DNA of 20,000 nt, taken from assembly GCA_008632985.1 (NCBI GenBank), contig QPGO01000198.1:118135-138134 (forward strand), written 5' to 3'. Under the pieces are notes generated by a model, which was not told where the DNA came from, ran no database searches, and saw only the letters and a program-made list of their open reading frames with translations. The translations under genes and the position numbers were made by a program. The DNA comes from Psammoneis japonica. Its lineage: Eukaryota. Each line of letters opens with the position of its first letter. Positions within the stretch are counted from its first letter, which is position 1. Below are positions 1 to 20,000 of this stretch, one piece after another.

Positions 1-1548
1 CATTGACACATCCGGCTGTGATTGAACAGGTGCAGTAGCCGCTTTGCTCTTTCCACCAGGTGAGCTATCAATGTTAATTCGGATGGCCTCTTTTTTTGCT
101 TTGCGCGCATTACCGTTTTGTGCAGCGGGCGATAATACTCGGCTCTTGTCTCTTGATTTGCGAGGCGATGATGAGCCGCTCTTTGTCTTCTTTTCACACG
201 ATCCACTACTACTACTCTGTTTCCTTAATCTCCTAGTAGGCTTTTCCATTATTTCCTTCTTGTTCTTTCTTGTTGGAGAATGTTCTTGAAAGAGTTTGGT
301 CCATCGCTCCGAGACATTGCTCTTGATTCTTCGGTGTTCCGACGTGGCCTTCACCAAAGAGGAATTATTGTTTTCTTCTTCTTGACGCTGTTTGCGCGTC
401 ACCACCATTTCGGAATCACTCCAAGCGCCACAGGGATAAAGCCTCCCTGCACGTCGGCGGGGACTTGCCGCAGAATTGCATTCTCCATCCGAGTCATCAC
501 TGGACAAAAAGGCAGTCGGTATTTTCAAACGTCCCGGGGAGCCTTCTACAGATGAGTTTGGTGACTGAGCCTTTGGAATGACACTACTTGTGCTTGGCGG
601 ACGGGGCGGAGTTTTGAAGCCCAACGACGATACGGACGTTCTTGTAGGAGGCCGAGGCGGGGTTTGATGATGAGCGACTGGCAATTGAGCGGTACGTAGA
701 GGCTTTCGTGGTGGCGTTCCAAGAGGAGGTTTCTTCTCTGTACCGAGAGGAGGTGGTGGTGTCGAGGCTCTCTGTGTCGTCACGACGGGCGGCGATGGTA
801 TTGGGGATGATTCTGGTGTAGACGTCGTAGACTGAATCGGCTTTGTTGGTGTGGTCCTTTTCGTCCATCGTGGGGGAGTCCGTTTGCTAACCTTGAGTGA
901 AGCTCCCTGCTTCTGTTGCGCTTGTTGTTCTAACGACGGTAGCGCAGGTGGCAGAGCCGCATTCACATCCTCCATATTGTAGGAAGATGGCACAGGGGTA
1001 GTATCATTCTCATCCGAGCTCAAATCCTTTTTCATATGCCGTGGAGGTGGAGGAGTAGGTTTCGGAGACGGAACAACAGGAGGAGGCACCGGTAATTCTG
1101 ACTCGGAGGATAGCGACTGTGACTGTGTCAGTGACGGAACTTGTTGCTGTTCCTGTACTAGAGATATCCTTACGTCGTCGTGCATGCCCTTGAGGAGCAT
1201 TTGACCCTTGAAATTGATCAGCTTTCGTTTCTTGGCACTTTTCAACGTCCCCACGAGTGCTTCATAATATTGTTGCGCTTCTTCGTCTTCAAACAACTCT
1301 CCAAAGAGACAGTACGGCTCCTGAGGGTCACCAATACGAACAATATCCAACTGCAACTGCTTCAGTTCTTGCTCGAGTCGATGCTATAATGGGCAATAAT
1401 CGAGAGCTTATACGTGAGAGACATGTCGAATTCAATTGTTCCAAACATGCTTTTCGACAAAACATACCTCATGGTCCTTCACGTGATCCTGCGAAGGTGA
1501 CGGAGTCCAAGAATTTTGTAACGGTGGACTTGATAACTTGCTAGCCAT
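1..1548 (-). CDS. Costars (ABRACL-like) domain protein with long Pro/Ser-rich disordered extension; partial, continues beyond the left edge
   Basis: ATG at 1548; exon 1 1548-1468 (MASKLSSPPLQNSW...); intron 1467-1384 (GTATGT...TATAG); exon 2 1383 to <1 is open for 461 codons. It is missing from the ORF track, probably because it has no stop in the window. Exon 2 begins HRLEQELKQLQLDIVRIG...LFGELFEDEEAQQYYEALVGTLKSAKKRKLINFKGQMLLKGMHDDVRISLVQ, matching the Costars pattern (FG.LF.D...EALVGTLKAAKRRK...G.LLLQG.HDDV.I.L). Confidence 0.88.
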
Positions 1549-2232
1549 ATTGTCACTGTATACTGTATCTATTGCAATCTAATATCCCAAACGTCCTTTC
1601 AAAACTTTAGAAAACAGTACCAGGTCCATCAACAACAACAGCCAACAACCAACATAACAGGCAGAGCATGAAATGCGGTGTCCGTCCTCGCAGAGTCCGT
1701 TGGCACAATGTCCCACGTTCGTATCTATATTCGATTTCGGAGAAATTAGTTTGATGTCAAATTTTTTTTAAATAAGAAAGATTTAGAGAAACATACGTAC
1801 TTGAATACGGGAATGAATTTTTGATACGAGTGAACCTCGTGCCAGACACACAACGTACAGTGTACAGTATGCCATTTTGGATTCAGCGGGGTGTGGGGGG
1901 CACCTCCCTACAATTTTTCTAAGTACATTCTAATGACGCATTCAACACTTGACTGTTCTTTGGGGGAGCGTTCCTTCGTCAAACATTCCCCCGCTCATCA
2001 ATTGGTGAACAACGTGCCAACGCGATCTTGCTTCAACACAGCTTGAAACTTCAACACAAGATCGATCGCTAACTAACAAGAAGATCTGGATCGCAGATCG
2101 AAGCGAACACATTCTGCCTCTCATAAACCCATCATCACAATAAGCAGCATCTGGCAGCTTATTGTTTTGTCGTCTCTTTGTTGAAAACATCTTTTCCAGC
2201 CCAAATTCGTCTAGCTGGCGAATTCCACAAAG

Positions 2233-3818: not shown

Positions 3819-4140
3819 GCAAAGATGGATCCAAAATAAAGTACAGTGGGCGCTGCATTTGTGAATGCTGGTGTGTCAAGGATAGTGCTCGCAAAAACAC
3901 GTCGGGACTAAGTACTTCCCATGGATTCGTGCAGCTCTCGTGCCAGGCCAAATCAAATCACCTTTAAAAAGAAAATTAGGGGGTTTGTACCTGTCCTTTT
4001 AGTAATTTACGACTAACTTAGCTAAATATTTTTTCCGGAGCACGCTGTCCTCTCTTCTTTGTACTTCAATCGCTTTGCTTCTGAGTTCCCGTGGTAAGGA
4101 AGGTGAAAAACTTAATGTATCAACTCTATTTCTTTCTCTT

Positions 4141-6573
4141 TCATAGTTGAACCACTTCGGCACTCTTGTCACCGAAGAGCTCCCCGGCCTTCTTGTCATC
4201 GACAACAACAAGCCAGTCGCGCTTTTTTCTTTTGCTGCCTGACGTGGACTTGTTGCGTCCGCGGCGACCATTCCTGAGGTCGCAGAGGCAGCAGAATCCG
4301 CGGGCATCTGAACAAGTAGTCGCAGACAAGGTCGATAATCGGAAACGAGTGTGTCCTGTAGTGTCTTCCATTCGGTGTGAAGTTCTTCCGACAGCTTCTG
4401 AGATACTTTTTCCTTCTTTGGCTTTCCCCGGCTCTCATGATAAAGTTTCGATGGAACAAGGGTTCGAAGCGCATCTTGTTGATTACTCACGGCAGAAACG
4501 TACTTGGACTGCACTATACAGGTGCGAAAGTCGCCATAGTCTAGGCGGTTTCGCAACAAGAAGATCAAATCGGGGCCAATGTTATCATCTGGATAGCAGA
4601 AAGGAGCAACTTGACCCTCGAACTTGGAACTGACTGACTTTGCAACCCAATCGATCGTTTTTCTAATACTCTCACTGGTGTCAACACAGAGCACGCCATA
4701 CGCCGACCTCCTTGAAATGTCGTAGGCCTCCAAAGCCGAACCGCCTTCCTCCAAATGTGAATTCAGGAAATTGTGCAGTCTGTCCTTCTCCATCAACAGA
4801 CCAGGCAACAGCAACCTCTCAAACCCTTCGCCGAGGCCACCTTCTTCCTGTTTCTTCAAATTTTCTCGGAGGTGGTGGTCGAGGTCGAAAAAATTGATCC
4901 CAGCTTGAACGACGACAGGTTCGTCGAGATGCCCTTTTATGCTGGTCCCTTGTCGATCAGTTTCGCAAACTGCAGCCACGCCATTTTCGATCAGCGCTTT
5001 TGCAGAAGCATCAGCAAACGGATGCGGTTTCTGGCCAACGGCAAAACGGCACACCGCATGCTCTAGGTCGTCCACTACCCGCCTAAGCAACTGGTTCATG
5101 CTCGATTCAGTGCCGGAACATTTGCGATCCACCCTTGCAAAGCAAGCATGCGCCGAAGTTTCGCCGGCAGTCCATGACTCTCGTCGGTTGTTTTCTTGAT
5201 CTGCACGCGTCATGACGTTCAAATGTCGATCCAAGGCTTCAATCAGTTTGGCACCCATGTCCTCGAAACTACCTTGAGTTCTCCACACTTGATTCGAGTG
5301 ACTTTTGTTCTCCCGTCGACTGGAGTGTGCTTCCAAAAAGCCAGCAGCCCATCTTGGTCGTCCACGAAGCCAGTTGGCGATGTGCGTCATGACATCATCG
5401 CGCACGCCAGATGGATCAAGCATTTGTTTGGCGCAGGCATTCTTTGACCTCTTCTACACTGAGCAACCTGAAACCCACGAAGAAGAGGCTTGCACTGTCA
5501 CCGAGCGATTTTCCCACAATGGACAGCGTCTGTTCGGAAAGTTGGTCCAATGCGAGACCTGTGCCCGAGAACACTGGAAAGTGCAAATCCTTTCGCATCT
5601 TGGACAAACAACCAAATCCCCCCACAATGGCAGAGAAAGCTGACCTGGCCTGCATGCCATTTCTGCTCAGAAATTTCATCTTGTTGAGCTCCAAGAGTGC
5701 TTGTGCTTCGTCAACAAAGATGGACCAAACTTTCTTTGTGGAGGCACAATGATCGAAGCGAACAGCTCCATTGACGCGGTCTTCATCACACTTCTCCATG
5801 GCATCGTAAAATGTGTCCCCGCCAAGCAGTCTTTCTGGAAATGTTTGATGCAGCAACCACTCGCGCGGAGTCATGTCCCTCTTCAAAATTTTGTTCAGTT
5901 CCTCATGGACAACATGCCGGACAAAAAGGAGCACCGACAGTCGCTCTTGAATTGTGGTGCGATTCTTGTCGTTCGTGCTTCGTGCGGGTGTCATTCGCCT
6001 CTGGCAAATCGCAGTCCAAAACATGCAGGAGATCCCGTGAACCTGGGTTTCTGCAAAAGTCGTCCACCAAAAAGTAGAACCCCTTCTCACGGCTCAGACA
6101 TTCAAAGATGGTGCGGGTCTTTCCAGCACCGGATGTGCCACAGAGAAATGTCGGTCCTTCTTCTTGCGCTCTGCAAATGTGTTGGTGGCCCTCGGGTTGA
6201 GAATGGTGCACTGTGTTGTGTCCACTGTTGTCTGCCAGACCCTGCAGAAGAGAAGGCATGGACGCGACGTTGACATGAAGCCTTCCTGCTGTCCAAGGGA
6301 GTGCCGCAATGGAACATTCTCGCGCTGGGGCTTCCACAGTGACGCCAACAAGGCGTCTCGTTGGGGCTCAAAAAATTCCAGCTGTGGTCCATTGACACTG
6401 ATGCTTTCTTCATGCTCCTGGAGGCAGGCTGCCACGAAGACCTTCACCGTGTCCGCAACCTCTTTCTTCTCCACACCCATCTTAAGATCCTCGTTTGAGC
6501 GGTTGGGTGCTGTTGGTTCAGCAGAAGAAAGTGGGTTGCTGTTGCGTTGGAGCAAGTGGCGTTGCTTTGTCAA
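4141..6573 (-). pseudogene. Crinkler/CR-effector-type P-loop NTPase + PD-(D/E)xK restriction-endonuclease-fold protein; frameshifted, 5' half hypermutated
   Basis: Successive minus frames give Walker A GTSGAGKT (6116-6139), Walker B IFVDEAQ (5701-5721), FSGTGL, WLRGRPRW, then the REase motif YPDDNIGPDLIF...IVQSKY (~4497-4595) and a C-terminal DWLVVVDDKKAGELFG...VVQL* ending at 4141. At least four frameshifts (~6270, ~5980, ~5425, ~4260). The 5' end is uncertain. Confidence 0.75.
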
Positions 6574-6622
6574 CGTTCACTGGGTCATTCTGTTGTTCTT
6601 TCTTGTTTCTTGCTTTCCCCAG

Positions 6623-8830
6623 GTTTTCCCACTTCTCCAAAATCGAGCAATGCAACATTCAAGCACAGACATGTGTCAAAATCGAATCAGCAATCAACTG
6701 TGGGCATCCGTTCATCGCGTTTGTGATCGCAATCCCGCCCGAGGGAACCATCGCACGGTCGTTTGTGCACCACAGTCAAGTGGTGAACGCCACTTTTCAG
6801 TGTGATGGGAGGGGTGATTTTGCAAAGCATTCGTGATTGCTTCACTGTGGAATTCAGAAGTTTTTTCAGCATGTTTGCGACTCAGAAGAGACGCAGAATC
6901 CCACCGGAGTGGAGGTGATTGAGCACCTTGATCCGGTGGAACAGAATCTGCGGCACCCAACGCTGGATGTCATTGGGGACGGGTGCAATCCGGCAGATTT
7001 TCTGAGTGAGAACAAGCTTTCAATGTTGGTCAACAACATGGACCACTCATGTGAGGATGCTGAAGTGCATCTCACGGCGGAGCTAGAACAGAATCAGGAG
7101 CTGTTCGATGCCGAGGTGCACCTGGAGCAGCGCTGTTTTGGCAGGTGCTGTCTCTAGAGAGTTGACAGCATGCGGTGCTGTGGTGTCTGTGTCATCCCAC
7201 TGGTGCATCAAATTGGCATTTCATGCCACAGTCGGGCCAAAAGAAGCGATTCAACAGCTCAGTCTAGAAAGTTTTAGCGGTGGCGCGCGAACAAAAAATG
7301 CGTGGAAGCAGTGCCACAATGTGCGGCCCAAAAAGAATGACACGGCATTCCGTTGTGGACAATTGTTGGTTGCCGGAGGAAGCACAACAGACAGGGGAAA
7401 CAAGCATGGTGAAGAGACGACGCAAGCAAAGAGACCGACACTGATGCAAGTGCCGGAGAGAGATGCAAGGACAGCAATCCAACGACATTGCAAGGGCGCA
7501 AAAGAGAGAACAGATCCATTTGAGTTAGTGCCATGTCTTCAACAAAAAAAGAACAATGCAAGACAACATTGGCATGCACAAAAACTCACACAGAGAAGCA
7601 CCACACCAGCGCCAGAAAAATGACCACATCTGCGGTGAGATGCAACAGCACAAGGAGGTGAGAACACACTTTTCTACCAGCGCAATGCAACAACGAGCAA
7701 ATGGGCAATGGAAACTCACCAGTGGGAGCAAAACTTGGGCTGTCTGGATTGCCAATGGCGGGCAGGGAGGAAAGAAGTCTGCTGGTTCCACGGAGCATGA
7801 TGACAAAAGCACGCAGCAGATTGGCATGAGCTTTGGCAGAAAGTGGGTGCTTGGGCTTGAGTGACTTGTCCAGTGCACACAAATCATGGCAGCAGCTTGG
7901 AGAATGGAGGCAGTGCTGTGGTGGGATGGCATGGGCCGGGGAGAGAAGAGGTGTTGCGGCAGAACGGCGTGGAATGGGGACGGAGCCAAAAACAGTGATG
8001 GTGTCGGTGCAGACCCATGGACATCAATGTCCCCATCTTCGAGTCCTGTGCATCAACACACACAGGGCAAGGACATTCAAGGTGAGTGCCGTTGCAAACG
8101 AGAACAGGAAAAAGACGCAAGACCATTCCCACGAGAATCAGAACTCACCATGTTTTTGTTCATTCTGACTCATTCTAGAGCCAGGGCTCACTCACACAGC
8201 ACAACCCAATGGAGCATGTGACACTGTCAAGCAAGGTGGGGGTTGGGAGGCAGTGTTGTCCCGGTCAAATTGGCCATGAGCGCCATTGTCGGAGGGAGTG
8301 GCGGTTGTCGATCGGCTGCTCAGAAAAATTGTGAGCCATCAACTTGAACGCGCACAGCTCGGAGTCACACAAATTCTGTTGGCAATGCAAATTGCACACA
8401 AAAAGTGCATCAGCACAAAAATGTGCAGAAGGTCTGCAAGTGGAATTGCACTGCCATCTCTGTGGCCCACACAAGGATTCTGCCATTAAAACACACCAGC
8501 ATGCACAATTTCACGTGGGTGGATTTGAGTCGTTCGTGCTAATTTTTTCAAATGTGGACCGCATGAATGGGCCAGCAATGGGAATCGAACCTGTGCACAT
8601 CACCTGGAGCTGGAACAGCCCCCCAATTCTTGGTGGTCGTGGCAGTGTTTGTTCACTTTGTCAGAGCCAATGTGCTGTGATGCTCAGACACCTGGAATGG
8701 GCATCATGAATGGTGTGGTGCAGTCATTGCGATTGATCAATTTTTGTGGCAAGCACCATGTTGGTCTTGTGGTTGCTCACGCAATCACTGAGTTCTTTGT
8801 GTGCATGTGTGCATTTACGAGCATGAACTG
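6623..8830 (+). pseudogene. Degenerate intron-containing gene of unknown family
   Basis: Candidate acceptor TTTCCCCAG at 6622. ORFs 6495-6836 and 6837-7157 are one frame split by a single TGA. With H/C read as Y and TGA as CGA, it reads like protein (AKYSRLLYYGIQKFFQYVYDSEE...AEVYLEQRYFGRYYL). It continues through frameshifts (7108-7623, 7833-8081), a clean intron 8082-8178 (GTGAGT...CTGAC..TTCTAG) and ORF pieces to ~8830. Confidence 0.55.
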
Positions 8831-9661
8831 AGTGCTCTTGTGGACCAGAGCAGTGATCCGTTAAGATGATGCATTGTTTGGATGCAACATGTTTGATCAC
8901 AGGAATGCAATGTGTTGGCTGAGTGCACAAACATTCAGGTGATGGTGTGGTGGCAGGCACTGTTGGATGCATGATGCACCACTGAGAGACGAATGTCTGA
9001 ATGTGTCAATCGACAGTTTTGCATCAATTGGTGCAAACAATGACACTGAACGGTGACCCGGCATGCTCGCAGGTTCATCAGCCAGTGGCATTTGCTGAAG
9101 CAAACTGCACACCACACATTTTCCCTCACAAAACTGTTTGTTTGCACACCAAAACGCAAAACAGCACTCTGATGCACCATGGCCACTGCTGCAGCCTTTG
9201 CAGCTGCTCTTGCGCGCTGTGTTGCCCACCAAGGTTTCACCACTGTTGAAAACCTGGAACAGGCCCCATTGACCAAAGTCAGTGACATGCTCAAGGGCAT
9301 CATGAAAGCAGCTGACCCCACTGTCAATCCCCAAGTGTGCTCCCCCCACATGGTGAATCACAAGCTCAAGGCTCTGCGTGCATGGGCTGATCACAGGAGA
9401 GCCCGAAACCAAGAACCCATGCCACCAGCCACTTTTGGTGGTTGCATTGTTGCCAAGTGTGGACAGAGCGCCTCATGGAATTGGAGCAACTCAAGTTGGC
9501 AGACTTGGACAATGACGCCAGTGCCGCCATGGAGCTCAAGCATCTGTGCGACTGGGTGGCCGACCTTCCAGGAGCTGTTGGAGACTGGAGACCGAGCTGC
9601 GACATCGCTGCACAATGCCATTGCTGGTGTCTCCCTTGTCTGCCTCATTCAGGAACATTGA
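8829..9661 (+). mobile_element. Truncated Ty1/copia (CoDi-like) LTR retrotransposon: putative 5' LTR, PBS and gag N-terminus
   Basis: Candidate LTR from TG at 8829 to ...CATCA at 9026, followed by ATTGGTG (PBS-like). ORF from ATG 9179 has SPHMVNHKLKALRAWADHRRARNQEP and WPTFQELLET...AGVSLVCLIQEH, resembling diatom CoDi gag motifs as I recall them (KLKA.R.W; W..F.E....YL....G..G.PL.Y.IR). No pol or second LTR is visible. The LTR left edge is uncertain. Confidence 0.62.
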
Positions 9662-9920
9662 TGCACTGCAGTGTCAAATGTCCTCTCTGGATCATGCAGA
9701 AGAAGCTGTGGATGCGGGGTTGCCCCATGGAGTGCCGCAATGTGGGACATTCTCCCGCTGGGGCTTCCACAGCAACATGCCACAACAAGGCGTCTTGAAG
9801 GGGCTCAAAAGCTTCCAGCTGCGGTCCATTGACACTGACACACTTTCTTCATGCTCCTGGAGGCAGGCTGCCACGAAGACCTTCGCGGTGTCCGCAACCT
9901 CTTTCTTCTTCGCATCCATC
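9660..9920 (-). pseudogene. Paralogous fragment of the N-terminal region of the NTPase-REase gene
   Basis: Aligns directly with ~6205-6482, e.g. the shared CTTTCTTCATGCTCCTGGAGGCAGGCTGCCACGAAGACCTTC...GTGTCCGCAACCTCTTTCTTCT. Proteins: KKKEVADTAKVFVAACLQEHEES vs EKKEVADTVKVFVAACLQEHEES; both have LWKPQRENVP. Confidence 0.9.
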
Positions 9921-10377
9921 CATCGCACTGTCATTCACCAGTGCTGCTGTGCACTGCTGCCTGTTGGCGTTCAGTCAGTTGCACATTGCGCACTTGCTTC
10001 GAGCTCAGTCAATTTTTTCCATCGATCGTGTCACGCAGACTCTGTGTGACATGCAGTGTGTGGCTGACGCGTTTTCTGCGATCTTTTGCTTTAGAATTGA
10101 ACACACTTTTTATCAAGTTGCGCGCAGACTTTGGCGGCCACAGAAGGAGGAAAGGTGGGCGATTGATGGAAAAAGGTGATGGGCCAATGTGGGCAAGGAG
10201 GGGGGCAGCAGAGCAAGGTGACAGGCTTGTTGCTGTGGTGTGGCAAATGTTGAGTGTTGGCACTCTGGTTGTCTGTTGACAAAATCAGAAAGAACAAGGG
10301 CCCAACAGGCGAGTGCCAGCTGCAGCGCCATCATGCCTCCTGGAGATCCAGGACATTTGGCACAACCTGAGTTGTGG

Positions 10378-10608
10378 NNNNNNNNNNNNNNNNNNNNNNN
10401 NNNNNNNNNNNNNNNNNNNNNNNNNNNNNNNNNNNNNNNNNNNNNNNNNNNNNNNNNNNNNNNNNNNNNNNNNNNNNNNNNNNNNNNNNNNNNNNNNNNN
10501 NNNNNNNNNNNNNNNNNNNNNNNNNNNNNNNNNNNNNNNNNNNNNNNNNNNNNNNNNNNNNNNNNNNNNNNNNNNNNNNNNNNNNNNNNNNNNNNNNNNN
10601 NNNNNNNN
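10378..10608. other. Assembly gap (N run)
   Basis: 231 consecutive N. Confidence 1.
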
Positions 10609-12023
10609 AAAGGCAAAGTCAAGCCACAAAGACTCTTCTTGTGCTCAAAGCAATGTGAAATGAAAAGCAAAGAGGGGGGCCTTGCTGGGGCGGAAGAGAA
10701 GTCCCGGCTCGGTCCACTCGCCAGGACGAGCTGGTTGTTTGTTTTGCAGTGGGCTCAATTTTGACATCAAAGCAGTTGAGAGCAAACTCCAGATGCAGTT
10801 TTGACATGAAATGACCAGTTTCTCAAGGATTTTCCTTCACCCAGTTTGTGCTGTGGTGCGAGTGCTGTGTGTGGACAGCAGCTGCAGCTCGGGAGGGGCA
10901 GCGCCAGGTGGCAACCCAGGTGCATCAGCTTGCTCTTCAAAAGAGCTGCAGCCACAACTTGACAAACCCAGATGGCAGTTGCCAGAAACAGATCTCTTGC
11001 TTGAAGTGAAGCTGCTGCTGAGTTGTTTTTGCACATGAAGAAAAACAACAAGAAAGCTCATTTCCAGCTGTGCCAGCGGGGCTGCTGGGTTTGCACGTGA
11101 GAGCAGGGGTCGTGCTGCAAGCTGGGGTGAGCAAAGTCACTGGAGACAACTCAAACTGGGGTCATGTGCATGATCTTGAAAAAAGGAAACAGGAGCACTG
11201 GATCAAAAGAAGAGAAAAAAAGCGCTGCACAGGCAAGGGCAGCACCCTGCCGAGGCAGCAAAAAGCACGCCAATTGGCTTTGCTCCCCAGATGCACCAGC
11301 TGCTCCCCTGCAAAAGAGTTTTGTCATTGCTGTGTTTTCTGTCTTGTTCTTGTCATCAAAGTTTTGCATGCACTGGACAAGCTGATGATTTGAACAAGGT
11401 GCTGAAGCAACACACAAACATGGAGTGTGCGCGCATGGAAGTGGGCCGCATTTTGTGAAGGAGTTTCTGGCAATGCAGAGCAGCAGAGAACCTGCTGTGC
11501 AATTTAAAACCACACACAGATGAGTCATGGTGAGGCACTGAAAAGTGTGGCAGAGCAAACTGGCGAGAAGGGAACAAACTGCAAAGCATGGTTGTGGTGT
11601 GCAAGCACAAAACTCTTTTTCTGTGTTCTGCATTTTTGATGCACTGGCCGAAGGACTGCTTCAATCTTGACATCTCTCAGGCTTTGCTTCTGACAAAGTG
11701 ATGAGGATTCCAATGTTTGTGCCATTGGCTGCAGGCATCCCGTCGCCTGTCATTGTTTTGTCTTTCGCTGGTGCGAACACAGTGGCACAACACAACGTGC
11801 ACATGGCCAGATGGGTGTTGTGTCATTTTTAAGGGGCCCAAGTGTTGTTTTGTTGGTCTCATGTGATGTTTTGTCAGTGGGCATTGCATTTGTGTGTTTT
11901 GGCCAATCAGAAAACTCTTCCTAAGATTTGCGACATTTTCGTCAAAGGAAAAGAATAAATGAAATGCTCTTTCTTTTGTCGCAACGACAAATTGCAATTG
12001 GCCACATCCCTGCTTGTCATTTG

Positions 12024-12780
12024 CGAGCTCGAATTTGCACAGACATGCTCCAGAGCACATCTGTGCATTTGCGTAGATTTTGCACCAGTCGCATCGTAGA
12101 GTGATGTTGTTCGCCTGCCCCAACGAACTCTTTCTCGTACACAAAATGTTGCTCACGCCTGCCAGATGGGTTGGAGGCACATTTTCCTGGTGCAAACACG
12201 TGGAATTTAACGCAGCTGCACAGATGGTCTCTGGAGACCATCTGTGCAGGTGACAGTGCACAGATGACAGAGACCATCTGTGCACAAGTGGGGATGTCGA
12301 AACAAAGGCAACCCCATGAATGTCCCATGTGTCATGACATGATGTGATCACATTCACAGCAGGGCCCTGTTCTATGACTGGGTCATGATCATCACAACAC
12401 TGTCGTGTGGCCCTTCAAAAACACGATTGGCGAACTTAGCGTCACACAATCACACTTCCATGTCCCTGCTCATTTTTCACGAGCTCCAATTTGCACACGA
12501 ACCACGTGCTGGTTCCTGTGCATTTACATGCATTTTACACCAGTCACATCGTAGAGGGGTGTTGTTCGCCGGCCCTGACGAACTCTTTCTCAGACACAAA
12601 ACACTTTTCACTGCATTCCGGCACATGACTGCCGGCTCGGTGGACACTGTTTCGAGTGCGTTTTCATGTAGAGCCTGCTGCAGATGCAGGCATTCAGATT
12701 TAATCGGTGCAAATCTATGCAGCATTTTGCGCAGGGTGCACACGGACCACCAGGTGGTTCGTGTGCACAAGCAGGGACAT
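12024..12780. repeat. Two diverged direct-repeat units, each bracketed by 31-32 bp TGCACA...TGTGCA palindromes
   Basis: 12024-12150 aligns with 12480-12605 (CGAGCTC.AATTTGCACA...CACCAGTC.CATCGTAGAG...TGTTGTTCGCC.GCCC..ACGAACTCTTTCTC...CACAAAA). Hairpins at 12036-12067, 12216-12249, 12256-12285, 12492-12522 and 12736-12768. Confidence 0.85.
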
Positions 12781-13269
12781 TCACGAACAATTTTTACAAC
12801 TCCTCACATGCGCTCTCATCAAAGAATGCTTTTTCAGGAAGTGACGTCATTTGTGCCATTTTTTTAACAACTTCAATGCCTTCTATCTCGAAAACGAGTC
12901 AGAATCCCCCCACTTTTCTTGTTTCCAAAACATCTCTTTTACTCAGCTGCACAACATGAGTGAATCATAAAAAAATCTGCAGAACCATTTTGGAGACATT
13001 TTTGCTTTTGTGCAATCGTGCAGCATGTCACGAGCTCTTTTTCTGAATTTTGGTCTCAACTTCACGATCGGTGTTCCATGCATGGCAACGTAGACAGAAC
13101 CCTGAAACCATCGTTTCCTCATCCACCTTCATGTGTTGCACTTGGTCCATAAAAGTCAGACCCATCCACCTGGTTTGAAAAATCTCACTCCATTTGCTCC
13201 TCCTTTCGCTGACCAATGAGGTCCCATTTTTTCAAAATTCCGAAAAACGAGTTGAAATTCCAGGCCCTG
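12360..13269. mobile_element. Possible non-autonomous DNA transposon with hAT-like termini
   Basis: Starts CAGGGCC (12360) and ends GGCCCTG (13263-13269). No recognisable coding content. Retains more TpA than its neighbours. No matching 8 bp target-site duplication. Confidence 0.35.
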
Positions 13270-13361
13270 ATGGGTGCACAACACTTAGTTGACATCCACC
13301 TGACTGCAAGACGCCTCTCCGGGTCCCTCCCCGTGAGGCAAAACACTCAACCAGCCACACC

Positions 13362-16200
13362 ATGAGAGCGCAGCCGGTCCATCAAGTTCTCTCTCGCATC
13401 AAAGAACAAAACTGTTGCCTGGGAAAAGCGAAACAACACAAGAACCAACTGTGTGAAAAGCAACCACACGAGAAAAGTGTGAACGAGAAATGAAACAATG
13501 ACGATGACTGCTGGCGAGGTGATGATGGTGACGATCGCCACAACAACAAAAAGCCACGCCGAGCGGCTGCGAGGAGTTCCTCCTCCAGAAGTGGTGCTGC
13601 TGCTTCTTCTGGTTCTCATCAGGACGTTCCTCATCGAGGAGGAAGAGCAGATGAAAGCCAAGGAGGAAGAACAGATGGTGATCCACACCGTCCAGGAGGA
13701 AATCAAACTGACCAGGATGGTTGTCATGGACCCACTCCTTGGCAAGATCATAAGCACCATCAACCATCGCAACCACAACCACAGCATCAAGATCGAGGAC
13801 ATCGAAATGAACAACAACAACAACAACAACCGCACCAACGTGATGACGATCATTGTTGTCAACACCAGCAGCAGCAAGATCATCGTCCTCCTCCTCCTCC
13901 TCAGTGTCATCCTCAAGAACAACAACACAGTGGAAGAGGAGATCGTGGTCAGCATCAGCAACAGCAATCTGGTGGTGGTCATTGTGGTCATCATGGACGA
14001 CCCTCAGGAGGAGGAGGAGGAGGTGAAGGGTGCCACCAACAACAAGACTCTGCGCCTCCTTGTCGAGGTTCTTCTTGGCAGCAGCAACAACAGTGCCGTG
14101 GTGATCATTGTCAGCATCAACAGCAGCAGCCTCAACCACAGCATCACCAGCCGCCGCATCAGCAATGCCAGCAAGGAGTTCCACAACAGCAGCGGCATCA
14201 ACAAGGTCGCTGCTTTGATGGAAGCCTGCAAGGCACTGTTCTCTGCTGCTGGAGTGAGAAGTCTTTTCTTGTTCCTCCCTGTTCTTGTCACCATTTGTTC
14301 AAGTGCACCTTCCATCATTGTTGCCATGATTGGTGGCAGTGGCTGCAGCACATCACTGGCTCACACCAGCGATGCACTGCAGGTCTGGGCCAAGAATCTG
14401 AGTTTGCAGTCCTGCCAGCTCCGGTTGGCAATTGAGGTGGAACAAAGTGTTTGGGCAGAACAACAGTGCCGTGCAACAAGTCAAGAGTTTCAGCAGTCAA
14501 AAGTGGTGCTCTTTGACATTGCATCACAGATCACCATGGAAAATGAAGAAATCTTTCAAACAGTGTGGGCCACCACCTTGGCGTTTGGCACCGAGCCTTT
14601 GCCCCCTCCTTTGCCCGTGAATCCAGAACATGCCCCAGCATTGGTCAACCCATGATCAATGACAGCTGAATGACATCATCACCACCTGACCTGACTGCAT
14701 TGCCCCTGCATGTCCACAGACAATGCAGAGCTGCTGCAGCGCCAAAAACAACAGAAACTCCAGTTGGCGCCTGCACACCATCAAAAGATGGGGTGACCGG
14801 GGCTGGTGCAGCCTGAACCACTGCCAACAGGTCAGGCACACGTGGCCTCTTGGCTGTGGCGGATGCAAAAGAAAGAAGTGAGACCAGAAAAAGCCTTGTG
14901 GCTGGTGCAAATGTTTTGGGCTGTGCCTTTGCCAATGAGCTGGGTGGCTGAATGCACAACAATCTGCGCTGTGTGCATGTCTTTGTGGCTCTGAAAAAAA
15001 AGACAATCACAGATGCTGCTGAGTTGGTTGATCAAAAGCAAACTGTCCCACATTTGGTGTTGCACAGAAAAGCTGCCCTGTGAACACACAGGCAAAAGGT
15101 GATGGTGGCAGCAGCAGTGCCACACAAATCATCACTGCAACCTGCATGAGCACATCGCTGGTGTGTTGGGAGAACAGATCCCAAGAGAAAAAATCTGGCA
15201 TGAGATCCCTGAAATGGCAGCCATTGAAATCTTCAAGAAAGTGCTCTCAGCACCAGTTGTCTTGGGCCTCGTCATTTGCACAGTTCTCCAGGAAGGCTTC
15301 TTGGAGTTGCTTGTCGGTGACTCCGATTTTTTCACAATGATTGTCCCCATTGTGTGTTGCAGTGCCTTGTTCTTGGCACAATTCACTGCAGGTGGATGTG
15401 TGTCTTGCAGTCTGGGTGGTTGCTGTTCATCAACCTCTGCTGCACAGTGAATGCAGGTGCACAAGCAAAGTGGTGCTGATGCATTCACCAGCAGCTTGAG
15501 GAGCTCCTTTGGAACCTCCAAGATGCAACGACTTGTGATTGTTGATGTTGCAACTCCCTGCACTTCCATGATGTGGCAACAAATTGCAGAGACTGTGGCA
15601 AAGCTCAAGGATTTGATGGCAGAAGAGGATGATGAGGATGCACGAGCAACCATCGCGCAATGATTTCACAATGATGTCACAAAGTGGTCCGATTGATGAT
15701 GCTGTTTCAAGTCTGCAGAGTGTTGAAGAAAGCAGACTAAAAGGATCGGTTGATGGATGGCGTGTTGGTTTGCAGAAATTCTTTGTGGAAAGTTGGGCAG
15801 TGCCAGCAAATGACAGTTTTTCTGAAGTTCAGTGGTGCACTCCTCCAAAGGAGTCCAGGCTTGTTTCACATGGTGCAGTCCTAAATTCAGGGATGAGTTG
15901 AACAATGAAGATTGCAGGTTGACCATCCATGGCTTTTTGTTTCCTGAGCATTCAGACACCAATCAAGAGTTTGTCATGTTTGACTGGCAAAGAGTTGCAG
16001 TGTCCCATGGAACGCCAAATCCTGAGTGGCCCATTGGTGTCATGGCAACATCTTGCCAGTTGAGATGAAAGCTGCAAGCAAAAATTGGTGGAAGACATGA
16101 AGGCACCAGACTCTGCTGCCTTGTTGGCCATGTCTTCCCTGCATGACGTTGACCACCATTGACGGCAACTCAATCTCAAGAGACAGCCGGTCTTCAAGCA
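13362..16200 (+). pseudogene. Degenerate gene with an N-terminal Q/G/P-rich (inferred formerly Tyr-rich) low-complexity domain and an unidentified globular region
   Basis: ATG at 13362 in frame +3, one TGA at 13491, then open past 14200 (…EQQQQQQPHQRDDDHCCQHQQQQDHRPPPPPQCHPQEQQHSGRG…). Protein-like pieces follow in other frames (14330-14655, 15163-15663, 15832-16068), split by TGA stops and frameshifts. The 3' limit is approximate. Confidence 0.55.
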
Positions 16201-16691
16201 GCTGTCTGTCAAGAAAGGGGCTGCCTCATGAAGATGTTTGCAGCGGCGCAGTGGCAGAAAGATGACCGACACAACAATTTGCAGAGCTGATTCTGACTGT
16301 CATCTCTGGCACCACTTGCCTGCTTTTTTCTTGCTGCAGCAAAGACACAGCATGCACAAGAAGAACACCCCCAGAAACTGAGTCTGCAAAAGCAACAAAG
16401 TTTGCAGCAGGAAAATTCCCTTTGATTTTCTAGGAGGAAAGTCGCTCCCAGCATTTTGTCTTCCATTGTGTGCCACAAAAGTGAGGTGGCAACATCCAAT
16501 GCCACCAGCAGTTTTTCAAACTCTCTGCCCACAGAGCCTTGAAAAAAGAAAAAAAGAGTTGCCAGCCAGAGTTGCGTGCCGGAGTGTGCTTTGTTTCATT
16601 TCTCTCACAAGCATCTTTCCAAGAACAGGAGGGTGCGTGCTGTTCTCTTGCTCCCAACATGCACAAAATCAAAGGTGTTGCTTGGTGACAG

Positions 16692-16715
16692 GTGTGTGTG
16701 TGTGTGTGTGTGTGT
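16692..16715. repeat. (GT)12 microsatellite
   Basis: Read directly from the sequence. Confidence 0.95.
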
Positions 16716-17526
16716 TTTCAAGACTCAGCAGTGCCCAGAGCTTGGCTTCCCCTCAGCTCTGGCAGAGGGTGGCAACTTGGGTCAAAACAAACCAGTTGGT
16801 TGAGTTGTGTGCAGCGGCCCTCCAGCGCTGCTCTCTGCACCTTAATTTCTGACAGAGTCAGACATGAGAAAGAGAAGATGAGTTTTTTCTCTGATGCCTC
16901 TGGGCTTGCTCTCACAATTCTCTGCACAAAACCTTGATGCCTTTGGGGCCCACAGCAATCTTGCAAAGAAAAAAATGTGGCGCAGCTGACAAAAAGCAGC
17001 ACAATTGTTTGACACAGAAAATTGGCGCCCTCTCTCTGACTTTGTCTTGTGTTGCTCAAGTGCTGGAGACACACACACACAAGACAAGGTCAATGCTCTT
17101 GTTGGACAGCAGAGAGCAGGAGAGCAGGCAACATGTCAGCGCTCTCATCAAACCAAATGCTGCCTGCCCTTCAGACCAAGACTCTCCATGTTCCCATGGA
17201 AATTGAGTTTTGTCATTTTTCAAAAGCATGCAAGGGCTTGGCACAAGGGCTTGATCCCTTTGTCTCTGACTTTCTTGCTGTGTCTTTGCTCGCATCTCTT
17301 GTGCTTCATCAGCCAGGCTGTCTTCTTCACACAACGCCCAACTTTTGTTTTGCAGCCTGGCTCAATCTGTGCAATTCCTTTGTGGCATTTCCACAAGACA
17401 TGTGACAATGACACAAGAGACATGTTGAAGCAGAGCACACAGCAACAAGCGGTGTGTTGAAACTCCTCCTCGTGTCAAAAACTAACTTCGGCCGAGGCGC
17501 CGCGTTTTGGTTTCATGCCAAAAAAA

Positions 17527-17538
17527 TTTGGCGGGAAA
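17527..17538. promoter_or_regulatory. Candidate E2F binding site TTTGGCGGGAAA
   Basis: Exact reverse complement of the canonical E2F element TTTCCCGCCAAA, at the right border of the mutated block. Function untested. Confidence 0.4.
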
Positions 17539-17996
17539 CAACATTTTTCGTTTTTTCTATATAAACATGTATGTTTCATTTGAATGTTCAACTTATTCGA
17601 TTCATTATTATAACATGAAATAAAAAATATTCAACATTGAATAAAACTATGGATATTTTCAATCATGCAAGCGGCATTCTTGAATTCTGAAACGAAAACA
17701 GAAAAAGGGGCAGATTGCGCATCTCTTTGATGGGTTTGGGGTCAGCATGGCGGCAACAACCATGGTATGTACGCGACAAGGTGTCGACTTGTGTGTGTTT
17801 TTACTGTGCCTTGCCACAGACATGGAGCGTATAAAAGGGGGAACAAGTCCCCATGTTTCGAAATTGCACCCGCATGTTTTTGATCACGGGTGTATCACGG
17901 TGTTCTCATCGATCGTGCATAATGTGACCTCACATTCATGCTGTTTTTTTCTTCTTCTTAAATTAGAGACGCATCACATCAACTAGTGGAAACGGC

Positions 17997-19702
17997 ATGA
18001 ATGCAATTGCTGCAGCTGCTCTCCTGCTTGTAAGCCTTTTCTCCGTTACAGTCGTCCATGCCCGCCCAAATTTTATATTCATGTACGCCGACGACTTGGG
18101 GTTTGGAGATTTAAAGTCGTACGGTCATCCCTATGCCATTACAGACAATGTCGATCGACTGGCCAGAGAGGGAACAGCGTTTTACGGATTTCACAATACA
18201 GGCAATATCTGTCCCACGAGCCGAGCGGGTTTCATGACGAGCCGCAATCCCTCGTGGTTTCCCAATTACACTCCCGACTTTGGATTTCGGGGTACCATGA
18301 CGGTCACACAGCTGTTACAAGACGCGGGATACCAAGTCGGACATATCGGCAAGTGGAATATCGGGGATCCTACACCCGCCAGGAGTGATACCGGCTTTGC
18401 GTTTCCGGAATATGGAATGACGGATGTGAGAATTACCCACGATGGACGAAACGACCCAAGAGGAAAGGAAGCGCATCGGTACGACTTGGCGATTGATTTT
18501 GTGGAACAAAATCAAAATGTACCATTCTATCTCAATGTATGGCAATACGTTCCACACTCGCCCATTTTACCGGCAGCCATTTTGAAGGAAAAATTTAACG
18601 GCCTCGTCGTCAATCGCAGTCTGTTTGGTCCCTATATGCAACAAAATTTTGATACAATCGAGAGACTGGGAGGAAACATTGACGTTTCCATGCAAAACTA
18701 TCTAGCCGAGGTTTATGGTATGGACATTCACATTGGTAGGTTATTGACGCGGCTCGATGAGCTGGGGTTGGCAAACAACACCCTATTGGTCTTCTCCAGT
18801 GACAATGGCCCGGCGGTCAATGATCAACCCGACGACTATGCTGCCGGATGGTCTGGTGGTCTTCGTGGTGGAAAGCCCAATTGTACGAGGGTGGACCGTC
18901 CGTGCCATTATATGTAAGGTGGCGGGACGAGTGCGGCCGGCAAGGTCAATACAGAATCCTTCTTTTCGTCACTCGACTGGCTCCCAACCATTTGCTCACT
19001 CGCCGGAGCAAATTATTCACAAGATCTTGTCGAAGGAGAGGATGTCAGTGATATATGGCTGGGATCCAATCGATCAAGAAAGAATCCAACCTTTTATCAA
19101 GATCCCTTCTCTGACAAAGTTGCGGTTCGTACGATAAATGGAAAATGCTTCAGTGGAAGAACGAACTCTATGAAATCGACGTGGATCGCCAAGAGACTTC
19201 CAACGTGTACGACGACTATCCCGAGATTGTGGCTGCCATGACAGATCTGATTGATCAATACAAGGTTACAATACCACAAAATCATGCGTTTGAAGGCCAA
19301 AGCCCGCTGCAATTTGATCCTACGGAACCGGTGCAAACCTATGAAATTCCGGCTGTGCTCGCCACTCCGGCACCCACGCCGTCACCGAGCTTGAGCCCTT
19401 CCTCCATGTACGTATCATCAAACACCACCATGAGCCCTTCCATGTTTGTCTTTTCAAACACATCGTTTCCCACAAGCAATTTGCCGAGCACAAGCCCGTC
19501 CTTTGTGCCGACGGTTTCGCCAAGTGCTCGTCCTTCTATTGTCCCGACAACCTTTCCAAGTGCTCNNNNNNNNNNNNNNNNNNNNNNNNNNNNNNNNNNN
19601 NNNNNNNNNGTCGTCCTTCTAACAATCCAACATCTCACTGAGCTTTTCTCTTCTGTTCACCATCTTCCATACCAACAATGGAACCAACTTTTTACCCACT
19701 AG
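17997..19702 (+). CDS. Secreted arylsulfatase-family (S1) sulfatase with C-terminal Ser/Pro/Thr-rich tail; frameshifted as assembled
   Basis: Signal peptide, RPNFIFMYADDLGFGDL, ICPTSRAGFMTSR, GHIGKWNIG, VPHSP, FSSDNGP, GLRGGK/AQLYEGG, SSLDWLPTICSLAG, ELYEIDVDRQETSNV, then PSxSPS repeats. Needs about four single-base frameshifts (~18877, ~18923, ~18937, ~19128). The 3' end is obscured by an N gap. Confidence 0.9.
19566..19609. other. Assembly gap (N run) within the low-complexity tail
   Basis: 44 consecutive N. Confidence 1.
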
Positions 19703-20000
19703 CTCGCCTACATCAACCGGTTTCAGGTATTTCACAATGGTCGTGCTACGCTCTTCTTCCAATTGCCATTCTCTTGTACATCTTTTGAGTGGTGTGGCAT
19801 TGAGATAGAATATCACAAGACTGTGATTTTTTCAAGTTACTTTAAAATAGAGATTCATAGCTGGGTGATTATTCTTGTGGCTGGTCTAACCACTTCTTTC
19901 GCCTTAATGGTACCTAGTGTACCAAAGAAAGCCGCAATTCAACATAAGAGATTGGGACGAAAACATCGAAACAGTGAGATGACGTGAGTAAAGCAGCAAC

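Follow-up and report, generated by a model that had tools for sequence, protein, structure and literature searches.

TpA-restricted hypermutation of integrated viral DNA, as A>G or T>C, has been described in mutation-accumulation lines of Bigelowiella natans (Mettrop et al., bioRxiv 10.64898/2026.01.13.699255). According to the available text of that preprint, two viral regions together gained 231 single-nucleotide mutations, of which 230 were A>G or T>C and fell on TpA without exception, and the mutation rate there was about 1000 times the background; the larger region is an integrated, transcriptionally silent giant virus (NCLDV), and the authors propose an ADAT2-like deaminase, citing DNA A-deamination by amphioxus ADAT2. 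That text makes no mention of diatoms, and our literature searches found no report of TpA hypermutation in diatoms. The first-pass annotation of the locus presented here had considered such a pattern undescribed, which no longer holds in general, given the 2026 preprint, although our searches found no exception to it for diatoms.

Other known systems share parts of the picture. Fungal RIP likewise loads mobile or duplicated DNA with mutations region by region, all of them transitions, ruins its ability to encode proteins and can spill over into neighbouring sequence; however, it converts C:G to T:A, mostly at CpA, making TpA and creating stop codons, whereas here A:T becomes G:C, TpA is removed, GC is raised, and the removal of TAA and TAG leaves long open frames. 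Deamination of 5-methylcytosine turns CpG into TpG or CpA, as has also happened in this block, but it cannot remove TpA, whose loss is much the more complete of the two: TpA stands at an observed/expected ratio (o/e) of about 0.05 where CpG o/e is 0.6–0.8. With TpA removed, TG and CA raised and the loss uncoupled from CpG, neither process explains the pattern, as had been argued initially. APOBEC3 also disables invading DNA by an enzyme-made, context-specific load of transitions, but it acts as C>U on single-stranded cDNA with strand bias (plus-strand G>A), in contrast to the symmetric changes at A:T pairs of chromosomal DNA found here. TadA/ADAT2-ADAT3 and ADAR convert A to I, read as A>G, and favour a 5′ U/T neighbour, but the roles known for them are on RNA. 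We know of no TadA, ADAT or ADAR enzyme whose signature is a 5′ purine at −2 together with a 3′ pyrimidine.

We analysed a 20,000-nucleotide stretch of the Psammoneis japonica contig QPGO01000198.1 (the window; Table 1). Between 5090 and 17550, TpA accounts for 48 of 12,228 dinucleotides (o/e 0.06; binomial p = 3e-154 against the flank frequency), compared with o/e values of 0.55 in 1–5089 and 0.62 in 17551–20000. Many 500-base windows in the block hold just 0–2 TA, and depletion is only partial in 11800–13300 (o/e 0.2–0.3). The near absence of TpA over some 12.5 kb noticed in the first-pass annotation is therefore borne out, as are its by-eye count of about five TA in 13300–17460 (exactly five, at 13751, 15738, 15882, 16431 and 16843), the continued abundance of AA, TT and AT (1.07, 0.80 and 0.77 times their flank frequencies, respectively) and the normal TpA of the flanking genes, where o/e is 0.35–0.68 in the Costars region and 0.5–0.76 in the sulfatase region. 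We consider it very probable that this loss is a real footprint of TpA-targeted hypermutation. The block, about 12.7 kb long, would consist of old mobile-element DNA together with adjoining sequence. Its right limit falls within 17483–17558: a single TA at 17483 is followed by the next 13 within 17558–17654. The left limit lies further out than first thought, within an open reading frame, with onset between 4724, where the last Tyr codon (TAC) is retained, and about 4940. TA occurs there at 4664, 4667, 4699 (the final RTAY site) and 4723, and after that only at 4938, 5064, 5076 and 5084, while Y>H and Y>C changes appear near 5050.

Table 1. Features of the window, with strand and supporting evidence.
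Feature	Position	Strand	Evidence or remark
Flanking normal gene, Costars domain	1..1383	-	PF14705, E 3e-18
P-loop NTPase-family pseudogene (family of approx. 800 aa, known from diatoms)	4129..6576	-	Protein alignments
Hypermutated block	4725..17555	.	TpA nearly gone; CpG at about half; higher GC, TG and CA
Left border zone, graded	4725..5100	.	Inside open reading frame
Multi-copy repeat segment, fully TpA-depleted	6671..9338	.	Contig depth
Gag-like mobile-element protein remnant (putative), family without Pfam model	9218..9652	+	HMMER, tblastn
Second, partial copy of NTPase gene 5′ coding part	9721..9920	+	Copy of 6290-6481, 86% identity
Multi-copy repeat segment	10006..13340	.	Summed contig depth 384-1711
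Single-copy-depth segment, fullest TpA loss and strongest CpG loss	13341..17483	.	Contig depth 47-91
Right border, sharp, intergenic	17483..17558	.	TA positions
Flanking normal gene, sulfatase	17967..18917	+	PF00884, E 5e-31

The products of the change are TpG and CpA. Block o/e values are 0.48 for CG, 1.75 for CA and 1.71 for TG; relative to flank frequencies, about 455 TA and 289 CG were lost and about 845 TG plus CA gained, the flanks being an imperfect stand-in for the ancestral composition because in some contexts the TG/CA gains exceed the TA plus CG losses 2–3 fold. TG and CA are balanced (1265 and 1325), and strand bias at the kilobase scale is inconsistent (p < 0.05 in 2 of 13 one-kb bins over 5001–18000). 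Together with the Tyr replacements described below, this upholds the earlier claim that A changed to G at TpA on both strands.

The NTPase-family pseudogene, which has a weak AAA_22 match (Pfam), lies across the left border, with its C-terminal part outside the block and its N-terminal two thirds inside. Its C-terminal part is 61–65% identical to P0001 and P0002 and its N-terminal part 44%, and the frame is damaged by an in-frame stop near 6094–6096 and by frame changes near 4242, 5428 and 6000–6300. At columns where Tyr is conserved in 15 homologues, TAY is found in 6/6 outside the block and in 1/10 inside (Fisher p = 0.0009). The nine lost codons became CAY (four), TGY (three), CGC (one) and TTT (one), in agreement with the initial impression that Tyr had been replaced by both CAY and TGY. 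Conserved non-Tyr columns are kept in 86/96 cases outside and 121/138 inside (p = 0.68). Related loci of the family are not equally TpA-free: overall TA o/e is 0.30–0.67 in all nine, and 0.51–0.67 in eight of them. A second, partial copy of the gene elsewhere in the block has TG where the first has CA, or the reverse, at two sites, which are independent hits after duplication.

The loss follows the locus rather than one element, as first supposed, since it covers a pseudogene cut by the border, repeats and single-copy-depth DNA. Summed DNA-contig depth in the left repeat segment is 794–1854, against about 55–75 in single-copy parts, and TA o/e there is 0.04–0.15; the right-hand segment, with no recognisable gene and no Pfam match, has 0–2 TA per 500 bases and CpG o/e of 0.13–0.6. 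Single-copy-depth segments are as TpA-depleted as multi-copy ones, where "single-copy" refers to contigs placed at ≥80% likeness and leaves older, more diverged copies uncounted. The name "reverse-RIP" given in the first-pass annotation, which implies a repeat trigger, is not supported by this result. Nor could we confirm its "copia gag" in 13300–17460: the sole supportable gag-like remnant is at 9218–9652, the interval given by tblastn, with three matches in an exhaustive HMMER search (E 7.5e-6 to 1.3e-4); there, conserved FPY, DYR and TYV read SPH, DHR and VCL (Y>H, Y>H and Y>C). "Gag-like" is our reading of the alignment, as Pfam assigns no name. Among 92 stop-to-stop ORFs, none matched a Pfam gag, RT or integrase domain, and no viral hallmark was found among the block ORFs (Pfam).

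Bases flanking TpA order the loss. The 48 residual TA of the block comprise 1 RTAY, 23 mixed and 24 YTAR sites, against 100, 133 and 38 among the 271 flank TA (Fisher p = 1e-7); for the changed A, 5′-RTAY-3′ is fastest, followed by YTAY, and TAR is slowest. The 23 residual TA of 11800–13300 (1 RTAY, 15 mixed and 7 YTAR) belong to a less mutated, probably younger part of the second repeat segment. The RTAY-first rule recurs in a second diatom contig (L002), whose block carries a DDE_Tnp_4 transposase fragment: positions 1–3900 have RTAY at 1 of 86 TA, whereas the share past 4200 is 86 of 301 (p = 8e-10). The density of R(TG/CA)Y per kb goes up from 28.0 to 46.2 and that of YTAR is flat (9.3 to 9.5), while at mixed sites the product from A with a 3′ pyrimidine gains 17.9 per kb and the other product 3.2. 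It recurs more weakly in a third contig (L007), an NTPase-family copy with Tyr in 2/11 columns (5 H/C, 1 stop); in L001–L006, Tyr is retained in 71/91 columns.

Taken as a whole, the locus is best explained, with a probability of roughly 0.6, by region-confined rewriting of TpA to TpG or CpA in mobile-element DNA and adjoining sequence: a strand-symmetric process would convert A:T to G:C at TpA only, with slower decay of CpG to TpG or CpA alongside. Demonstrated at this locus are the way the change runs, its limitation to TpA, hits on both strands, confinement to a region with one border in a gene, and the ordering by flanking bases. It is probable that the same process operates in B. natans, where TpA alone is affected, products are TpG or CpA by strand, discrete regions lie beside normal DNA and, in the long term, TpA ends up low and CpA plus TpG high. 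According to the available text, genes of that species that are poor in TpA are enriched for transposase and RT domains, and a DDE transposase remnant lies in L002. There are also differences. B. natans is a chlorarachniophyte, of the rhizarian lineage, in which live mutations were recorded in viral targets, with Rho 0.45 in the NCLDV region, whereas the stramenopile case is known from its footprint, is near saturation (o/e 0.06) and concerns repeats, part of a gene of the NTPase family and a gag-like remnant. The term "CpG" is absent from the available text of the preprint, as is flanking context from its main text, while CpG is co-depleted and the hierarchy is seen here.

As for the chemistry, adenine deamination favoured at 5′-(R)TAY-3′ is a candidate that we put forward tentatively, at somewhat less than even odds; a TadA/ADAT-like deaminase had been among the candidates of the first-pass annotation, next to decay of a modified adenine and Pol eta-type repair. 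A TadA/ADAT2-like deaminase would turn adenine into hypoxanthine in DNA, targeting would go by the state of the chromatin, a domain both silent and CpG-methylated, and not by sequence homology, and the role may be the inactivation of invading DNA. The natural site of TadA is U-A-C-G in a tRNA loop, which fits TAC and leaves the 5′ purine preference unexplained; since RTAY is palindromic, an enzyme recognising duplex DNA would account for the preference just as well.

It is unlikely, although conceivable, that thymine is the target instead. A TET/JBP-like or other T-modifying enzyme acting at 5′-RTA-3′ in silent DNA would produce a modified T, such as 5-hydroxymethyl- or 5-formyl-uracil, that pairs with G and yields T>C. 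Its footprint in duplex DNA would be identical, a symmetric footprint cannot tell which base of the T:A pair was attacked, and the context rule reads equally as T in RTA. Dinoflagellate DNA contains 5-hydroxymethyluracil with a preference for TpA, and mispairing with G is known for 5-formyluracil; to our knowledge, no T modification has been reported in diatoms. The mixed sites, however, are governed more by the base 3′ of A, which is 5′ of T on the other strand only, although this is not decisive.

Error-prone repair is improbable. Lesions in methylated DNA (e.g., 5mC-derived T:G) would recruit a Pol eta-type polymerase that miscopies A:T at WA, and this would tie the TpA loss to the CpG loss, both being depleted in one block. 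CpG co-depletion, absent from the first-pass annotation, reaches o/e 0.13–0.3 in 14000–17500. In immunoglobulin hypermutation, the A>G errors that Pol eta commits at WA fall on TA more readily than on AA. The idea is nevertheless a poor fit, since AA keeps its frequency here; TT and CT have no matching shift either. Moreover, TA o/e is 0.00–0.08 in 5250–7000 though CpG is barely touched (0.61–0.84), the L002 block has lost all RTAY sites but one with CpG o/e mostly at 0.7–1.0, and conserved non-Tyr residues are affected no more inside the block than outside. The TpA and CpG losses may be linked or may be separate processes.

A-to-I editing of retroelement transcripts by an ADAR/ADAT-like enzyme, fixed by reverse transcription and integration, is very improbable. 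The 5′ U preference of ADAR, mentioned in the Discussion of the B. natans preprint (10.64898/2026.01.13.699255), would yield TA>TG, and a gag-like remnant lies within the block; but this rival is largely refuted because the footprint is strand-symmetric, with CAY and TGY in one gene. In addition, the block runs contiguously over a non-retroelement gene, repeats and single-copy-depth DNA with a border in a gene, and the L002 target is a DNA transposon remnant.

There is likewise very little chance that the block is foreign DNA, viral or horizontally acquired, that always lacked TpA, even though integrated viral DNA is targeted in B. natans (10.64898/2026.01.13.699255) and most of the block is without recognisable genes. 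The TpA loss is mutation and not native composition because Tyr became CAY or TGY only inside the block in a gene that is normal outside, relatives of that gene have normal TpA, duplicates carry TG and CA at the same site, and contigs bridge the borders; the kinetic ordering of the residual TA sites also argues against a native origin.

An artefact of sequencing, assembly or polishing can be set aside as highly unlikely: the window contains two N gaps (10378–10608 and 19566–19609) and is therefore a scaffold, and the single DNA run that the search turned up probably stems from the source sample itself, so that it does not count as support from an independent library, but Logan's contigs from this run reproduce the window sequence and bridge both borders at flank-like single-copy depth (record 4, 3112–5189, with one other letter, on the left; record 8, 16725–19012, on the right; records 6–8 span 14454–19012), the effect is limited to one region with one border within a gene, and the same context-specific signature appears in contigs of unrelated metagenome assemblies. 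Window and contigs differ by TG versus CA at 6229/6230 and 11593/11594, again as independent hits following duplication, and many other differences are CG versus TG or CA.

What is new here is a stramenopile case near saturation, its spread into a gene and single-copy-depth DNA, and the RTAY/YTAR rule. If the process is shared with B. natans, region-confined rewriting of TpA may be a widespread cellular means of wrecking invading DNA.

Between 5090 and 17550 only 48 TpA steps are left, a TA observed/expected ratio (o/e) of 0.06 versus 0.55 in one flank and 0.62 in the other (binomial p = 3e-154 for the deficit relative to flank frequency). Measured against flank frequency, TA stands at 0.10x, AA at 1.07x and AT at 0.77x. 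The products TG (1265) and CA (1325) are nearly equal, which means that both strands were hit. Strand bias at the kilobase scale is not consistent: p < 0.05 is reached in two of 13 one-kb bins, the CA-leaning bins lie only within 12001–14000 (p = 0.03 and 0.002), and the result of a runs test is weak (z = −2.3 for the block and −1.6 for the flank). The footprint is an A:T>G:C change confined to TpA, on both strands, in a regional domain with one border within a gene. The first-pass annotation had the extent of this depletion as 5090..17550; the depletion itself stands, but not its start, as onset lies further left, between 4724 and ~4940, within an open reading frame. The right border is sharp, between 17483 and 17558. 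Its estimate of about five TpA in 13300–17460 proved exact, five by count.

CpG is also low in the block (o/e 0.48 vs. ~1.0 in the flanks). TpA loss and CpG loss share their location along the block and are uncoupled: in 5250–7000 TA o/e is 0.00–0.08 while CpG o/e is 0.61–0.84, and in 14000–17500 CpG o/e goes down to 0.13–0.3. GpC is 1.47x the flanks, as expected if GTA>GCA and TAC>TGC changes were common, and its excess may be an extra marker of the TpA-removing process. Long open reading frames in all frames are common across the block, a by-product of the erasure of TAA and TAG, which leaves only TGA as a stop. The overlapping frames over simple-sequence DNA at 13350–14655 are likely such by-products as well, and not genes.

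Fungal repeat-induced point mutation (RIP) changes C:G to T:A, mainly CpA to TpA, so that TpA goes up and CpA and TpG go down. The block is the opposite, with CpA and TpG raised to o/e 1.75 and 1.71, and the earlier statement that RIP offers no explanation holds. RIP is also triggered by duplication and depends on cytosine methyltransferases of the RID/DIM-2 type. Beside two multi-copy segments of the block, segments of single-copy depth are equally or more TpA-depleted; copies below 80% likeness go uncounted in that depth. The same statement had been made for 5-methylcytosine deamination and is borne out by the balance against flank frequency: ~455 TpA and 289 CpG were lost and ~845 TpG+CpA gained. 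Deamination of 5-methylcytosine covers ~289 of ~745 lost YR steps (R, purine; Y, pyrimidine), and the ~455 lost TpA cannot derive from CpG loss.

The sequence is reproduced by DNA contigs from a run that is probably the source sample (X1, Logan's assembly). One contig (record 4) spans 3112–5189 with one other letter and bridges the left border; another (record 8) spans 16725–19012 with seven other letters and bridges the right one, both at ~50–60 depth, equal to the flanks. An assembly artefact is rejected on these grounds. An artefact at the library level would be compatible with such support, but the effect is regional, with one border within a gene, and a matching signature occurs in contigs from unrelated metagenome assemblies. 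Contigs of a second run (X2) look like transcripts, since they carry GT..AG joints in flank genes; they are placed on 1–4000 and 18000–19300. These introns, together with the relatives of the gene at the left border, mark the window as eukaryotic, diatom DNA. They give no or nearly no cover over 4670–6670, 9339–11339 and 14008–17342, and such missing cover is not evidence of silence.

The composition of the block is a product of mutation, and native composition is rejected as its source. The left border is crossed by a gene of ~800 aa with a P-loop (the NTPase-family gene), whose best relatives (an MMETSP transcript and proteins of Attheya sp. and Nitzschia inconspicua) indicate diatom affinity. 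We defined conserved columns by at least 60% agreement among at least five aligned homologues (set of 15). Outside the block, Tyr columns keep TAY in 6/6 cases; inside, one of ten is kept, the rest being four CAY (His), three TGY (Cys), one CGC and one TTT (Fisher p = 0.0009), which confirms the earlier observation that Tyr codons were replaced by both CAY and TGY. Non-Tyr conserved columns are kept alike on both sides (86/96 outside, 121/138 inside; p = 0.68); hence, among conserved columns, it is the TA-bearing Tyr codons that carry the excess of change, silent sites not being polarisable. The block part of the gene also carries an in-frame stop and frame changes, which make it a pseudogene. 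The family is not natively TpA-free, as overall TA o/e in nine related metagenome loci (L001–L009) is 0.30–0.67, and 0.51–0.67 in eight of them.

Both short pairs of internal duplicates have sites where one copy reads TG and its partner CA. The window has TG where same-sample contigs have CA at 6229/6230 and 11593/11594. Such a pattern would follow from separate changes of a single ancestral TpA (or CpG), on one strand in one copy or allele and on the opposite strand in another; the differences from the contigs may be alleles or sub-clonal forms.

Features of the window and of the metagenome contig L002 (depth is summed contig depth in X1; o/e, observed/expected)
Feature	Location	Strand	Remark
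Spliced gene of the left flank	2661-3972		Marked by an X2 contig that skips three short GT..AG introns (2921-3012, 3181-3251, 3464-3551)
NTPase-family pseudogene	4129-6576	-	Runs from 6576 to 4129
Single-copy-depth segments	4670-6670, 9339-10005, 13341-17343		Depth 47-91
Multi-copy segments	6671-9338, 10006-13340		Depth ~400-1850
Short internal duplicates, first pair	6290-6481/9721-9920
Short internal duplicates, second pair	12007-12146/12463-12601
Open reading frame with putative gag-like remnant	9173-9658	+	Remnant at 9218-9652(+)
Open reading frame	11677-12414	-	No homologue among 42 candidates
Partly depleted interval	11800-13300		TA o/e 0.2-0.3
Piece skipped by several DNA contigs	12458-12779		~317-322 bases; joints 12457>12780, 12458>12779, 12462>12780
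Overlapping open frames	13350-14655	both	218-390 aa, all of low complexity (acidic or rich in Asn, Gln or His)
DDE_Tnp_4 (Harbinger-type) transposase fragment	L002:980-1861		In partly hypermutated block

The TpA that remain follow a rule set by their neighbours, and we classed them as RTAY, mixed (RTAR/YTAY) or YTAR. The RTAY share differs between block and flanks (Fisher p = 1e-7), and estimated survival relative to flank density is 0.5% for RTAY, 9.5% for mixed and 35% for YTAR sites. Read per strand, the changed A is lost fastest in 5′-RTAY-3′, then in 5′-YTAY-3′, and slowest in 5′-NTAR-3′.

The same hierarchy, at an earlier stage, is seen in L002, a 17-kb metagenome contig on which the named relatives of a neighbouring gene are all diatoms (Seminavis, Cylindrotheca, Cyclotella). 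Its first 3.9 kb have TA o/e of 0.2–0.7 (0.23 over 1000–3300), end at a sharp border near 3900–4300 and adjoin an intact receptor gene (1108 aa). RTAY makes up one of the 86 residual TpA in 1–3900 versus 86/301 beyond 4200 (p = 8e-10). Among mixed sites, RCAR+YTGY, in which the A with a 3′ pyrimidine was changed, are up by 17.9/kb, and RTGR+YCAY by 3.2/kb. Estimated cumulative rates are 3.7 for RTAY, 0.53 for mixed and ~0 for YTAR; a 5′ purine must therefore matter too, since a 3′ pyrimidine alone predicts RTAY:mixed = 2:1.

TpA and its products by flanking bases, as counts in the window and densities per kb in L002
Region	Measure	RTAY	Mixed	YTAR	Total
Block 5090-17550	Residual TpA	1	23	24	48
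Flanks	TpA	100	133	38	271
Block without 11800-13300	Residual TpA	0	8	17	25
11800-13300 only	Residual TpA	1	15	7	23
L002 block 1-3900	TA per kb	0.3	12.3	9.5
L002 rest	TA per kb	12.1	20.9	9.3
L002 block 1-3900	TG or CA per kb	46.2		38.5
L002 rest	TG or CA per kb	28.0		41.3

A second member of the NTPase family was hit in L007, a 1.3-kb copy (1–1307; TA o/e 0.30, RTAY 2/27 of residual TpA): its conserved Tyr are kept in 2/11 cases (five His/Cys, one stop) vs. 71/91 in L001–L006. No block with the signature was found in L001, L003–L006, L008 or L009, where 600-base windows of low TA retain RTAY. Tyr→H/F/L replacements are common to L004, L006, L008 and L009 at identical columns, look inherited, and were rejected as products of hypermutation.

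The targets are in part probable mobile DNA: the multi-copy repeats and the gag-like remnant of the block and the transposase fragment of L002. Also hit are part of the NTPase-family gene and a 4-kb stretch at single-copy depth without recognisable content. A Pfam scan of 92 stop-to-stop open reading frames of at least 70 aa within 5644–17983 gave no domain typical of mobile elements or viruses, such as reverse transcriptase, integrase or capsid. A “copia gag” placed in 13300–17460 by the first-pass annotation was unconfirmed. All matches were weak and below curated cut-offs (AAA_22, AAA_18, LpqV, DYW_deaminase); we treated them as noise, except AAA in the NTPase-family gene. A deaminase gene based on the DYW_deaminase match was rejected (E 0.008 over 18 residues).

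For the frame that holds the gag-like remnant, exhaustive searching with HMMER gave three distant relatives (E 7.5e-6 to 1.3e-4), which we read from sequence as a putative gag-like mobile-element protein, one that lacks a Pfam model. The relatives’ conserved FPY, DYR and TYV appear as SPH, DHR and VCL in the window. Protein Atlas returned only low-sharing matches for this frame (82–114 of 256 features), hypothetical or EF-hand, and was uninformative. Self-alignment yielded just the two short pairs, and tandem or segmental duplication inside the window was rejected as the origin of the block. The piece skipped by several contigs points to other repeat copies without it and suggests a nested insertion in the window’s copy. 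The NTPase-family consensus shows the Walker A-like motif “GTSGAGKT” and the box “VDEAQ”, and apart from the weak AAA_22 match the family corresponds to none in Pfam. Several copies occur in diatom-bearing metagenomes; the family was hit by hypermutation twice, in the window and in L007, and may itself be part of a mobile element.

The process had been taken as undescribed, which no longer holds: a 2026 preprint reports TpA-only hypermutation in Bigelowiella natans (Mettrop et al., bioRxiv 10.64898/2026.01.13.699255). There, 231 of 302 nuclear single-nucleotide mutations in mutation-accumulation lines fell in two integrated viral regions, one of a giant virus (NCLDV) and one of a virophage; 230 of these 231 were A>G or T>C, each on TpA. 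The in-region rate was ~1000x background, with hypermutation in some lines only. The genome has clustered windows poor in TpA and rich in CpA+TpG, transposase and reverse transcriptase domains are enriched among TpA-depleted genes, and the enzyme proposed by the authors is an ADAT2-like deaminase of adenine in DNA. The main text makes no mention of diatoms, stramenopiles or CpG and give no context beyond TpA (10.64898/2026.01.13.699255).

As in B. natans, A:T pairs of the window block were changed only within TpA, other A/T contexts being spared; both strands were hit, with TpG and CpA as products; and discrete regions stand in normal adjoining DNA (borders at ~4725–4940 and 17483–17558 in the window, ~3900–4300 in L002). 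Unlike B. natans, where de novo mutations were seen in lines, the window is known from its footprint in one sample. The block is a further instance of a kind of process described once, in another lineage. New here are a near-saturated diatom case, the collateral destruction of a gene, two earlier-stage diatom loci and a tetranucleotide specificity rule. No report of TpA hypermutation in a diatom or stramenopile was found in the literature searched, which lacked most subscription journals; a Phaeodactylum “TpA” match (PMC4504042) was the word “Tpase-like”.

Regarding mechanism, we favour deamination of adenine at TpA to hypoxanthine, which would be read as G, with a probability of roughly 0.35–0.4, because a preference for 5′ T is in keeping with enzymes of the TadA/ADAT/ADAR type and the B. 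natans system points likewise. The natural site of TadA is U-A-C-G. A 5′ U preference of ADAR is given in the Discussion of the preprint (10.64898/2026.01.13.699255). The decay of CpG suggests that targeting might be through a methylated, silent domain. Diatom transposable elements are methylated at CpG. Since the left border is graded and lies within a gene, it would suggest a chromatin state that spread, and not repeats that were recognised.

An attack on thymine in 5′-RTA-3′ would leave an identical footprint, and we consider it unlikely. Pol eta-type mutagenesis at WA fits poorly, as A after A should change too, and AA stands at its flank level or slightly above it, without a paired gain of AG/CT. 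RNA A-to-I editing fixed by retrotransposition also fits poorly: it predicts change on the transcribed strand only and in one retroelement, whereas products are symmetric in a block that includes genic, repeat and further sequence, and a DNA transposon remnant was hit in L002.

The window observation is real and striking, yet with precedent. In the literature searched, TpA-only hypermutation of silenced foreign DNA is known from that preprint alone, which deals with one rhizarian alga (10.64898/2026.01.13.699255). A near-saturated diatom footprint and two partial diatom contigs suggest that the process is widespread, or arose more than once, in ecologically major algae. Genetic tools exist for diatoms, which makes an enzyme hunt practical; the order RTAY, then YTAY, then TAR is a biochemical specification for candidate deaminases or T-modifying enzymes, and lends itself to comparison with the table of mutations in B. 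natans. Stripped of TAA and TAG, dead DNA shows spurious long open reading frames in all frames; removal of TpA also makes mobile elements hard to find by homology, can knock out an adjacent gene, and raises local GC and GpC. Pipelines that annotate algal genomes should take every one of these effects into account.

Finally, we tentatively hypothesize, as a possibility still short of probable, that an old defence by DNA base editing, directed by chromatin, is common to diatoms and chlorarachniophytes, and that in it an enzyme at silent, methylated domains rewrites A in 5′-RTAY-3′ on both strands. The enzyme would most simply be an adenine deaminase derived from ADAT2/TadA, and rewriting would continue until all TpA is gone. 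Such a defence would spread over a domain and not by sequence homology, so that neighbouring host genes could be destroyed; it would remove TAA/TAG stops, raise GC and leave TG/CA dimorphic alleles. If true, it would be a widespread eukaryotic counterpart of RIP, of opposite chemistry, carried out by a natural editor of adenine in double-stranded DNA.
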